From a phage: 3,059 bases of DNA. The notes beneath the pieces are model-generated. The model worked only from the letters and a program-made list of their open reading frames with translations. It did not search any database and had not been told where the DNA came from. Location: the sequence record PZ195122.1, one strand, 5' to 3'. Below, piece after piece: positions 86 to 3,059 of the stretch; within the stretch, counting starts at the first letter, position 1, and every line of letters begins with the position of its first letter. Position numbers and translations under genes: made by a program.

Positions 86-1258
86 ATGTTTCCGAAGTCC
101 AATATAGACAGAAATTACAAGGTTAAACTTGTATCTTACGACAAGAAGGGTAGGTTGATTTCCGACGACTCTTTTGAGCAAGTCGAAAACTACCTCTTTC
201 AAAATCGTTCGAGCACGTATAAACCTGGTTATCTCCGTCGTGACTTTCGAAGACCAACTAACTTTTGGAATGGCTTTCGCTATTTTAATCAGCCAGTTGG
301 TACCTTCGTTCGGAAACTCTCTGATGGTGGGAGTCAAGTTGCCGACTATGGTATCGTGAACCCTAATAAGTTCACGGCCAACAGTCAGCACTTGGGGGAC
401 AACATGGTAATTTACCCTGGTCCCTTTTCTATAAACATTGATCAGCGTGCTTCTGTCGAAGTCCTCAATAAACTCTCACAATCCAACCTCAATATCGGGG
501 TTGCGATTGCTGAAGCTAAGATGACTGCTTCATTACTCGCTAAACAATCTATAGCTCTCATCAGAGCCTACACTGCCGCAAGGCGCGGTAATTGGCGAGA
601 GGTGTTTTCGCAACTCCTCATCTCCGAACACCGTTTCAGAGCTCCCGCTAGGGATCTCGGAGGTCGATGGCTCGAACTGCAGTACGGTTGGTTACCCCTC
701 ATGAGTGATATGAAAGCTGCATATGATTTGCTCACGCAAACCAAACTGCCCGCTTTCATGCCTCTAAGAGTTACCCGAACCGTTGGCGGTACACATAATT
801 ACAAAGTGCGTAACGTCGAATCTGCAGGGGATACTTGGTCCTACAGTGACCGCTTGTCGGTGAATTACCGAATATGGTATTTCATTTCCGATCCGCGACT
901 CGCATGGGCCAGTTCCCTCGGGCTTCTTAACCCTTTAGAAATTCTCTGGGAGAAGACGCCCTGGTCGTTCGTAGTTGACTGGTTCTTACCTGTCGGAAAT
1001 CTGATTGAAGCCATGAGTAATCCTCTTGGTCTCGATATCATATCCGGCACGAAGACTTGGCAACTCGAATCTAAACTTAATGCAACGCTTAAGGCATCGG
1101 GTTGGTCTGGAACTGCGAAGCTGTCTGCATACGCCAAGGCGTATGACAGATCAACTTTCTATTCCTTTCCCACTCCTTTACCTTATGTGAAATCCCCACT
1201 TAGTGGGCTTCACTTAGCGAATGCATTAGCCTTAATCAACCAACGCCTGAAAAGGTAA
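86..1258 (+). CDS. mat: Maturation (A / assembly) protein, 390 aa
   Basis: Complete 390-aa ORF with a strong Shine-Dalgarno, first gene in canonical levivirus order. Translation contains blocks I recognise from the MS2 A protein ([70 protein letters not shown]). Stop TAA at 1256-1258. Confidence 0.93.
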
Positions 1259-1274: not shown

Positions 1275-1667
1275 ATGGCAACTTTACGCAGTTTCGTACT
1301 CGTCGATAATGGCGGTACGGGGAATGTTACTGTCGTTCCTGTTAGCAATGCCAACGGCGTCGCTGAGTGGCTTTCTAATAACTCACGTAGTCAAGCTTAT
1401 CGCGTGACTGCAAGTTATCGTGCGTCAGGCGCGGATAAGCGCAAGTACACCATCAAACTCGAGGTACCGAAAATCGTTACCCAAGTTGTAAATGGTGTCG
1501 AGCTGCCTATCTCCGCGTGGAAGGCTTATGCCTCCATCGACCTGACCATCCCGATCTTTGCTTCTACCGACGATGTGACTGTTATTTCCAAGTCACTTGC
1601 CGGCTTGTTCAAAGTCGGGAACCCTGTTGCCGAAGCTATCTCTTCACAGAGTGGCTTCTACGCTTAA
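1275..1667 (+). CDS. cp: Coat (capsid) protein, 130 aa including the initiator Met
   Basis: 130-aa ORF beginning MATLRSFVLVDNGGTGNVTVVP...NGVAEWLSNNSRSQAY...IPIFA...SGFYA, the signature levivirus coat fold sequence (compare MS2 FVLVDNGGTGDVTV / NGVAEWISSNSRSQAY / TIPIFA). From memory it is closest to the group II phage GA coat. Stop TAA at 1665-1667. Confidence 0.96.
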   Translation: MATLRSFVLVDNGGTGNVTVVPVSNANGVAEWLSNNSRSQAYRVTASYRASGADKRKYTIKLEVPKIVTQVVNGVELPISAWKAYASIDLTIPIFASTDDVTVISKSLAGLFKVGNPVAEAISSQSGFYA

Positions 1668-1858
1668 TGGGTCTGAAAGCAAAACATAAGGAAAACCTAT
1701 GTTCCGATTCACAGAGATCGAAAAGACTCTATGTATGGATCGCACTCGCGATTGTGCTATCCGATTTCACGTCTATCTTCAGTCATTGGATTTGGGGTCT
1801 TCTGATCCTCATTCTCCAGACTTTGATGGACTTGCCTACCTTCGTGATGAATGTCTAA
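1667..1858 (+). CDS. lys: Lysis protein (L-type single-gene lysis), 63 aa
   Basis: ATG at 1667-1669 overlaps the coat stop (TAATG). Translation MGLKAKHKENLCSDSQRSKRLYVWIALAIVLSDFTSIFSHWIWGLLILILQTLMDLPTFVMNV has a basic N-terminal part and a hydrophobic C-terminal transmembrane stretch with an L-S dipeptide, as in MS2 L (LYVLIFLAIFLSKFT). Lies in a different frame from the replicase, overlapping its 5' end. Stop TAA at 1856-1858. Confidence 0.85.
   Translation: MGLKAKHKENLCSDSQRSKRLYVWIALAIVLSDFTSIFSHWIWGLLILILQTLMDLPTFVMNV
1684..1702 (+). promoter_or_regulatory. Translational operator hairpin (coat-protein binding site) enclosing the replicase start codon
   Basis: ACAUA-A-GG-AAAA-CC-UAUGU: a 5-bp lower stem (1684-1688 with 1698-1702), unpaired A1689, a 2-bp upper stem (G1690-C1697, G1691-C1696) and a 4-nt loop AAAA (1692-1695). 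The replicase AUG (1699-1701) sits in the 3' arm. Same architecture as the MS2 operator ACAUGAGGAUUACCCAUGU. Confidence 0.78.
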
Positions 1859-3059
1859 CTAAACATCCCTCACTAGGAGACAGTAATTCGGAGGCACGCC
1901 GTAAGGAATTGGCATATGCCAAACTTATGGATAGTGATCAAAGATGCAAAATCCAAAACAGCAACGGATACGACTACTCTCATATCGAGAGCAGCGTACT
2001 GAACGGCATACTCAAGACCGCTCAGGCCCTAATTGCGAACTTGCTCAAGGGTTTTGAATCTCACTTCCTGAACGATTGTTCGTTCTCCAACGGAGCCTCA
2101 CAAGGGTTCAAGTTGCGGGATGCAGCGCCGTTTAAGAAGATCGCTGGGCAAGCAACCGTTACAGCTCCTGCCTATGACATTGCCGTAGCCGCCGTTAAAA
2201 CGTGCGCGCCGTGGTATGTTTATATGCAGGAAACGTATGGCGATGAAACCAAATGGTTCCGTCGGGTATACGGCAACGGTTTGTTTTCTGTTCCGAAGAA
2301 CAATAAAATAGATCGGGCTGCCTGTAAGGAGCCTGATATGAATATGTACCTTCAGAAAGGGGCGGGATCTTTTATAAGAAAACGCCTTCGCTCTGTCGGT
2401 ATAGATCTTAATGATCAAACGTGTAATCAAGAATTGGCCCGACTCGGCAGCATTGATGGTTCTCTCGCTACTATTGATCTCAGTAGCGCGAGTGATTCCA
2501 TCTCTGATCGCCTCGTCTGGGACCTACTTCCTCCACACGTTTATTCATACCTCGCCCGCATTCGGTCATCATTCACTATGATTGATGGCCGCCTGCATAA
2601 GTGGGGTCTATTTTCTACCATGGGAAACGGCTTCACATTCGAACTTGAGTCCATGATTTTCTGGGCTCTGAGTAAGAGTGTTATGCTGTCCATGGATGTT
2701 ACTGGCTCATTAGGCATCTACGGTGACGATATAATCGTCCCTGTACAGTGTGCCCCAACTCTCCTTAAGGTACTATCCGCTGTGAACTTTCTTCCTAATG
2801 AAAGGAAGACATTTACGACGGGTTACTTTCGTGAAAGTTGCGGTGCTCACTATTTTAAAGGTGCCGACATGAAACCTTTTTACTGCAAGCGGCCAATGGA
2901 AACCCTTCCCGATGTCATGTTGCTTTGCAACAGGATAAGGGGTTGGCAGACCGTTGGTGGAATGTCAGATCCGCGGCTCTATCCAATTTGGAAAGAGTTC
3001 GCTGATATGATTCCGCCGAAGTTTAAGGGTGGATGCAACCTAGATCGTGATNNNNNNCT
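1699..3059 (+). CDS. rep: RNA-dependent RNA polymerase (replicase beta subunit), 3'-truncated by the window end
   Basis: Open frame from the ATG at 1699 for 451 codons up to the N run, with no stop. Blocks shared with MS2 replicase include NGASQGFKLRDAAPFKK, VPKNNKIDRAACKEPDMNMYLQKG, IDLSSASDSISDRLVW, FSTMGNGFTFELESMIFW, YGDDII (YGDD at 2719-2730) and RESCGAHY. Not in the ORF track, probably because it has no in-window stop. Confidence 0.96.
   Translation, partial: MFRFTEIEKTLCMDRTRDCAIRFHVYLQSLDLGSSDPHSPDFDGLAYLRDECLTKHPSLGDSNSEARRKELAYAKLMDSDQRCKIQNSNGYDYSHIESSVLNGILKTAQALIANLLKGFESHFLNDCSFSNGASQGFKLRDAAPFKKIAGQATVTAPAYDIAVAAVKTCAPWYVYMQETYGDETKWFRRVYGNGLFSVPKNNKIDRAACKEPDMNMYLQKGAGSFIRKRLRSVGIDLNDQTCNQELARLGSIDGSLATIDLSSASDSISDRLVWDLLPPHVYSYLARIRSSFTMIDGRLHKWGLFSTMGNGFTFELESMIFWALSKSVMLSMDVTGSLGIYGDDIIVPVQCAPTLLKVLSAVNFLPNERKTFTTGYFRESCGAHYFKGADMKPFYCKRPMETLPDVMLLCNRIRGWQTVGGMSDPRLYPIWKEFADMIPPKFKGGCNLDRDXX
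3052..3057. other. Run of 6 ambiguous bases (N), a sequencing or assembly gap inside the replicase gene
   Basis: Literal nnnnnn at 3052-3057, followed by 2 nt before the window ends. Confidence 0.9.

Follow-up and report, generated by a model that had tools for sequence, protein, structure and literature searches.

A GA-like RNA phage whose lysis gene lacks its own ribosome-binding site and is very probably read by reinitiation after coat termination

We analysed a stretch of 3,059 nucleotides from a phage (sequence record PZ195122.1; this whole stretch is henceforth referred to as the window, and all positions are counted from its first letter), concentrating on the point at which the coat protein gene ends and the lysis gene, L, begins. 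We consider it very probable that the window belongs to a GA-like phage whose L gene, having no ribosome-binding site of its own, is read by ribosomes that reinitiate after terminating on the coat gene. Such coupling of lysis to coat translation had been proposed in a preliminary description of the window, and our analysis supports it: termination-reinitiation is the published mechanism for phage GA, whose junction is nearly identical to the one found here. A reading of the raw sequence alone had, in other words, reconstructed a real and experimentally validated regulatory mechanism. The feature itself is already known, having been annotated since 1986 and its mechanism dissected in 2000 and 2023, and the window is one more isolate.

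The coat gene ends with TAC GCT TAA (1659-1667) and is followed by TG (1668-1669), A1667 being common to the coat TAA and the lysis ATG; the single shared A that the preliminary description had read from the letters is therefore borne out. As in GA, an upstream stop thus overlaps a downstream start in another frame (UAAUG). The lysis open reading frame (ORF) covers 192 nt including its stop codon at 1856-1858 and translates to 63 amino acids. Three genes occupy three frames here (coat 0, lysis -1, equivalent to +2, and replicase +1), and both the translations and the predicted fold confirm that, as had been described, the lysis ORF runs out of frame across an operator hairpin (1684-1702) and the replicase ATG (1699). 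The replicase start sits 32 nt downstream of the lysis start, in the window as in GA, and the lysis/replicase overlap takes up the first 160 nt of the replicase gene (1699-1858, or 53 codons), with lysis in the +1 frame relative to replicase. The additional claim that three functions (lysis coding, replicase coding and operator structure) constrain the same nucleotides holds for about 4 nt, 1699-1702; elsewhere there are two constraints only, lysis and operator at 1684-1698, and lysis and replicase at 1703-1858.

We assessed ribosome-binding signals by hybridising the 3' end of 16S rRNA (the anti-Shine-Dalgarno, or anti-SD, sequence) to the 22 nt upstream of each start codon. The best duplex ahead of the lysis start had a free energy of -2.7 kcal/mol, as compared with a median of -2.5 kcal/mol over all positions of the window, which agrees with the earlier remark that L has no obvious SD. 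The corresponding scores were -9.5 kcal/mol for the maturation gene, -6.1 kcal/mol for the coat gene and -6.2 kcal/mol for the replicase gene. By this hybridisation we found no functional SD for lysis in the 22 nt upstream of its start, in keeping with the SD-less junction of GA.

The mechanism has been established experimentally in GA with fusions that place lacZ at the lysis start, downstream of the 3' end of the coat gene (PMC9955659; Inokuchi, Quaglia, Hirashima, Yamamoto, Kaji & Kaji 2023, PLoS One; and the EMBO J 2000 study cited there). In that system, changing the coat AUG to AUU wiped out lacZ expression from the lysis start; free ribosomes were excluded from that start because it has no SD; and lysis was read solely by ribosomes finishing the coat gene, with the junction AUG being required. 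Specifically, the ribosome recycling factor (RRF) frees the ribosome at the UAA, after which the ribosome rebinds the AUG; coupling was not reduced when the AUG was displaced slightly in the downstream direction, by a few nucleotides (d = -1 to 4), but it was lowered by displacement upstream (PMC9955659). As far as they are related in that paper, earlier deletion and substitution analyses revealed no element permitting independent lysis expression in GA (Inokuchi et al., EMBO J 2000;19:3788, via PMC9955659). Coupling is also stated generally for the enterobacterial leviviruses (PMC3561173). The window differs from GA by about 7.4% of its nucleotides overall, whereas between 1632 and 1711 (80 nt) there is a single difference, at 1664, where the last Ala codon of the coat gene is GCU in the window and GCG in GA. 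Because this one difference is synonymous, the mechanism should be transferable from GA to the window, and by analogy it is safe to infer that this isolate would behave like GA.

Under this mechanism, a ribosome would end the coat gene at UAA 1665-1667, be released (by RRF, going by the GA experiments) and at once re-engage the overlapping AUG 1667-1669 with a frame shift of -1. A small and fixed fraction of coat translation events would then yield lysis protein, so that lysis output would be slaved to coat synthesis and the protein would build up only after much coat had been made. Translation of the lysis gene would then traverse the operator hairpin and the initial 53 codons of the replicase gene. 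From the general levivirus literature (PMC3561173) and from the work of van Duin's group on MS2, we infer that coupling would also set the timing of lysis.

To study conservation, we assembled a comparative set of 11 related sequence records (10 of them distinct) and three distant loci. The related records comprise GA (X03869, and once more as the IMG/VR copy L008), DL10, DL20, KU1, T72, three other IMG/VR contigs and two metagenome contigs. Three exact-pattern scans of viral contigs converged on one set of four contigs, and a single scan of metagenomes yielded two; searching viral contigs with the coat protein contributed the three distant loci only. The lysis ORF was intact, at 63-64 codons, in all 11 related records (10 distinct sequences). 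Across six full genomes, third positions of replicase codons were variable at 4 of 53 sites within the overlap (1699-1858) and at 187 of 397 sites outside it (Fisher p=4e-9), which is the suppression of synonymous variation that the preliminary description had predicted for such an alignment. Just one of the 34 sites at the junction (1665-1698) varied, compared with 26 in the last 100 nt of the coat gene. The substitutions seen at 1720, 1759 and 1792 are silent in L and alter replicase residues, while changes that are silent in replicase and alter L are confined to the C-terminus of L (1818, 1848 and 1851). Double coding thus nearly removes silent variation in the overlap and, in the sequences compared, junction, operator and overlap are almost invariant at 7-16% genome divergence.

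GA itself departs slightly from this picture. Its L protein differs from that of the window at two residues (Q16 in the window is E in GA, and I49 is Y), with the window agreeing with every other isolate. X03869 alone has G for C at window position 1712 (GA 1762) and alone carries a TA-for-AT swap at 1811-1812 (GA 1861-1862), each of which changes both the L and the replicase residue. These GA-only differences could be either true strain variation or reading errors in the 1986 sequence.

The product of the L gene (MGLKAKHKENLCSDSQRSKRLYVWIALAIVLSDFTSIFSHWIWGLLILILQTLMDLPTFVMNV) matches the Pfam family PF11125 (Phage_MS2_lysis) with 29.3 bits, above the gathering score of 25 (E=8.9e-7), and a BLASTP comparison with the L protein of MS2 gave 41% identity over 51 residues (E=6e-10) with the LS motifs aligned. 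Its residues 1-20 hold six K/R and two D/E, making for a basic N-terminus; hydropathy and charge then delimit a hydrophobic stretch at approximately residues 21-30, the Leu31-Ser32 motif and a hydrophobic C-terminus, the last being the only part that varies among isolates. This is the domain layout described for L-like single-gene lysis (Sgl) proteins, i.e., a positively charged N-terminus, a hydrophobic domain with an LS motif at its C-terminal end, and a variable C-terminus, and the L protein of the close relative KU1 has served as a functional, toxic Sgl (PMC10229422). Going by homology, then, 1667-1858 can be taken as an L-type single-gene lysis gene with a putative lytic function. A protein search with L found one single cluster, and neither the exact L protein nor the exact coat protein of the window was present in a collection of 15 billion proteins.

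Several observations, in this and the next paragraph, weigh against the reading of L by reinitiation at an overlapping start. In seven of the 11 related records, all of the KU1 type, 18 nt lie between the UAA and the lysis start, and six of these seven use UUG; the exact UAAUG overlap would therefore seem dispensable in nature and not obligatory in the clade. The preliminary description had held that isolates with an interrupted ORF at 1667 and lysis retained would speak against coupling. The start codon is indeed interrupted in the KU1 type, but coupling is not refuted by this, because reinitiation a short distance downstream is expected. In one distant relative, the L start follows the coat stop at a distance of 12 nt and is preceded by an SD-like UAAGGA/AGGAG, and the lysis start in that lineage may be independent of coupling. 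This relative (L015, IMGVR_UViG_3300028088_000015, 1649-1876) is one of the three distant loci, together with L013 and L014; its coat protein is 57% identical to that of the window, and its L-like ORF encodes 70 amino acids that are 44% identical to the L of the window over 36 residues, with the LS motif present.

Furthermore, neither the UAAUG motif nor the length of the ORF has statistical weight alone: a stop followed by UG is expected by chance about once in 16 cases, and an off-frame ATG ORF that reaches 63 codons or more turns up in 37% of codon-shuffled replicase genes. One could hence argue that 1667-1858 is a chance open frame and no gene at all. The significance of the ORF derives instead from its conservation in all relatives, the above-threshold match to PF11125 and the homology to MS2 L and, given also the synonymous suppression, the annotation of a lysis gene in GA, KU1, DL10, DL20 and T72 and the functional KU1 protein (PMC10229422), we regard the chance explanation as effectively refuted and give it next to no credence. 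A further point is that some of the conservation in 1668-1858 could stem from RNA structure rather than from double coding, i.e., from the operator, from long-range pairing that represses the replicase start and from folding of the replicase 5' end. Consistent with this, 1668-1698, which contains the operator and lies outside the replicase gene, has one variable site in 31 nt; GAAAGC at 1675-1680 is complementary to an invariant GCUUUC in the coat gene (1370-1375); and near-invariant bins without an overlapping gene also occur at 1311-1384, 2101-2160 and 2281-2340. However, substitutions within the overlap respect the lysis frame as described above, and L is homologous to MS2 L at the level of protein. 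RNA structure is thus a plausible partial contributor, and we think it improbable that it is the main cause of the near-invariance, with the lysis ORF adding little constraint.

Two further alternatives accept the gene and place its start, or the route to it, elsewhere. Upstream of the junction, the coat 3' end is predicted to fold into a hairpin (1632-1658) with a minimum free energy of -12.8 kcal/mol (z=-4.1; none of 200 shuffled sequences was equally stable), which stops 6 nt before the UAA and sequesters, in its 3' arm, the sole weak SD-like sequence, GAGUGG. This hairpin and neighbouring structure might mask the region of the lysis start, and coat-translating ribosomes might melt them and so allow a free 30S subunit to start de novo at AUG1667, with GAGUGG acting as SD; the GA record in fact labels the homologous segment (1683-1707) as 'pot. 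stem loop structure; pot. function in lysis gene control'. Yet the hairpin leaves out the lysis AUG, which lies 9 nt past its 3' end, the pairing of GAGUGG with the anti-SD is no better than that of a random position, and the GA data exclude free ribosomes and reveal no element for independent expression (PMC9955659). Moreover, some relatives (DL10, DL20 and the KU1 clade) have mismatches among three of the seven pairs of the lower stem, and no compensatory change was found in the hairpin among the relatives. Considering this, we deem such unmasking very unlikely, and any functional role of the predicted hairpin is at most putative. The other alternative is an N-terminally extended lysis product, in place of or alongside the 63-residue protein, made either by -1 frameshifting from the coat gene or by initiation further upstream: in the window, the lysis frame has no stop codon over the 228 nt that precede 1667 (back to approximately 1439), and an ORF of 113 codons would run from GTG 1517 (1517-1858). 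We rejected this candidate since the upstream open stretch is not conserved, amounting to 33 nt in GA and DL10, 93 nt in DL20 and 51-72 nt in the KU1 clade; in addition, no slippery site or SD was seen, and GA requires the AUG of UAAUG (PMC9955659), so that an extended product is almost certainly not made. Reinitiation at the junction AUG is therefore the reading that we retain.

The KU1-type junction differs from that of the window in several ways. KU1 and BZ13 strain T72, whose lysis start was the subject of Groeneveld, Oudot & van Duin 1996 (Virology 218:141, as cited in PMC12856241), belong to the same species as the window and have the same L protein (approximately 95% identity), operator and replicase overlap. 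In these phages the ancestral AUG is interrupted after its A by an 18-nt insert, with 3 nt more downstream; the insert forms together with the coat 3' end a CUACGCC-UAA-GGCGUAG hairpin that holds the stop codon in its loop; both insert and hairpin are absent from the window. The metagenome contig OGVH01001890.1 (L010), in which 335-443 is homologous to window 1625-1712, also carries the KU1-type 18-nt insert, and two substitutions, GCAUUG to GUAAUG, restore an AUG lysis start and recreate UAAUG; the new UAA is in frame with the coat gene, six codons past the real coat stop. The 5' end of this contig is a random-PCR primer sequence (GTTTCCCAGTCACGATA), making its first bases an artefact. Junctions thus occur as UAAUG (GA type and the window), as UAA, 18 nt and UUG with a stop-in-loop hairpin (KU1), as GUAAUG (L010) and with an SD of their own (L015). 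We speculate, with little confidence, that the identity of the lysis start and its distance from the coat stop act as a 'lysis clock' that is evolutionarily tunable within one species. If these forms do give graded reinitiation, natural isolates would sample different lysis timings at this position.

Comparison with better-known systems helps to place the junction. The L start of MS2 (1678) falls within the coat gene, 47 nt ahead of the coat stop, and L is read there in the +1 frame relative to coat, whereas in the window L starts at the stop and in the -1 frame. According to the model of Berkhout/Adhin and van Duin, terminating MS2 ribosomes reportedly have to reach back to the L start. The MS2 protein is also longer (75 amino acids, with a longer N-terminal domain, as opposed to 63 in the window), and its gene overlaps the replicase gene by 145 nt instead of 160 nt. 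Nonetheless, MS2 and fr have a homologous L protein in the +1 frame relative to replicase, MS2 shares the architecture of the operator hairpin with the window, and MS2 L is reported to be coupled to coat (PMC3561173). As L is in the +1 frame to replicase in both MS2 and the window, the L/replicase arrangement is ancestral, with the coat/L junction as the labile part. Stop/start overlaps of 1 or 4 nt (UAAUG or AUGA) are also found at coupled bacterial gene pairs such as trpB-trpA (PMC9955659). At most operon junctions the downstream SD lies inside the upstream ORF, whereas there is none in the window, and coupling should consequently be obligatory here rather than modulatory. The arrangement is a textbook case of how the smallest RNA phages compress their genomes and couple the translation of their genes, and the GA junction has for 25 years been a model for the behaviour of ribosomes and recycling factor after termination. 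To this the window adds one data point and no new question, its practical value being that of a positive control.

The putative replicase operator (ACAUA-A-GG-AAAA-CC-UAUGU) folds into a lower stem of 5-6 bp, a bulged A at 1689, a GG/CC upper stem and an AAAA loop, with the replicase AUG in the 3' stem. This dot-bracket pattern is that of the MS2 operator, and the GA record calls the element 'pot. binding site coat protein'. The sole Rfam match in the window, to RF02359 (MS2 operator) at 1682-1702, scored 18.1 bits (E=0.44), below the gathering score of 40, and covers model positions 16-36 only; we attribute the low score mainly to this partial match and probably also to the AAAA loop and the different flanks. 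Though not a scored member of RF02359, the hairpin is predicted from its fold to work like that of MS2. Binding to the GA operator was reportedly studied by Gott et al. 1991. The operator was invariant across all relatives, which therefore offered no compensatory changes in it; since such changes are absent from the hairpin upstream of the junction as well, both predicted structures rest on thermodynamics and literature. One possibility is that L-translating ribosomes, being bound to melt the operator, transiently de-repress the replicase start.

The wider gene set agrees with the identification of the phage. In megablast searches against phage records the window was 92.9% identical to BZ13 strain DL10, 92.6% to GA and 92.7% to DL20, and approximately 84.5% (84-85%) to KU1 and T72, each of these values spanning 99-100% of the window. 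The high whole-genome nucleotide identity, combined with the gene order maturation-coat-(lysis)-replicase, places the window, as judged from its sequence, in Emesvirus japonicum (GA/KU1/BZ13), i.e., among the group II F-specific single-stranded RNA coliphages. Its four + strand genes (Table 1) match the Pfam families Phage_mat-A, Levi_coat, Phage_MS2_lysis and RNA_replicase_B, all above the curated thresholds. In the GenBank record of GA (X03869; Inokuchi et al. 1986), coat (1325-1717), lysis (1717-1908) and replicase (1749-3347) correspond to the features of the window with an offset of 50 nt, and the annotations of GA, DL10 and DL20 share the coordinates of these three genes once offset. The window is an incomplete genome, with about 50 nt missing from its 5' terminus and about 360 nt from its 3' terminus: the GA alignment starts at GA position 54, and window positions 3052-3059 read NNNNNN and then CT, inside the replicase gene. 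As a consequence of this truncation, the 5' and 3' terminal structures are absent.

Table 1. Genes and RNA elements located in the window, with the evidence for each.
Feature	Position	Strand	Evidence and description
Maturation protein gene	86-1258	+	ORF list; Pfam Phage_mat-A
Coat protein gene, 130 aa, stop TAA at 1665-1667	1275-1667	+	ORF list; Pfam Levi_coat (129 bits); homologous to annotated GA coat (1325-1717)
Predicted hairpin at coat 3' end	1632-1658	+	Fold: 7 bp, bulged U, 4 bp, UCAC loop
UAAUG junction, coat stop (1665-1667) and lysis start (1667-1669) with 1-nt overlap	1665-1669	+	Sequence; identical in GA, DL10 and DL20; the junction studied in the GA coupling experiments
Lysis (L) gene, 63 codons and stop	1667-1858	+	Translation; Pfam PF11125; homology to MS2 L; kept in relatives
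Replicase translational operator hairpin, putative coat-protein binding site	1684-1702	+	Fold; inside lysis codons 6-12; holds the replicase AUG
Replicase beta-subunit gene, 5' 450 codons, running off the window end	1699-3059	+	Translation; Pfam RNA_replicase_B (699 bits)

Besides the restored AUG of the metagenome contig and the SD-preceded L start of the 57%-identity relative, a stretch of invariant coat sequence is what is mildly new here. Over 74 nt (1311-1384, coat codons 13-37) we saw zero variation among GA/KU1-type sequences that are 84-93% identical, the one exception being L010 at 1338; this amounts to 25 consecutive silent third positions in a gene in which 55 of 130 are variable. 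The stretch includes the GCUUUC whose 6 bp complementarity to GAAAGC, just upstream of the operator, was noticed by eye. These two positions are homologous to those of the long-distance (Min Jou) interaction by which the replicase start is repressed in MS2. An RNAduplex search for a long-range duplex of this type returned another, loop-rich duplex and not the GAAAGC/GCUUUC pairing.

The same invariant segment holds an out-of-frame ATG ORF (1309-1407, + strand, +1 frame within the coat gene) for a hydrophobic peptide of 32 amino acids (MAVRGMLLSFLLAMPTASLSGFLITHVVKLIA). All full GA/KU1-type genomes retain both the start and the stop of this ORF; it lacks an SD, and the C-terminal end of the peptide is variable. 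In the 57%-identity relatives the homologous frame closes after 17 codons, in MS2 after six, and we rejected the ORF as a gene candidate; it is probably not a gene. In the replicase gene, the bins 2101-2160 and 2281-2340, in which no overlapping ORF was noted, have approximately 2% variable sites, compared with approximately 22% in the rest of the gene (six genomes).

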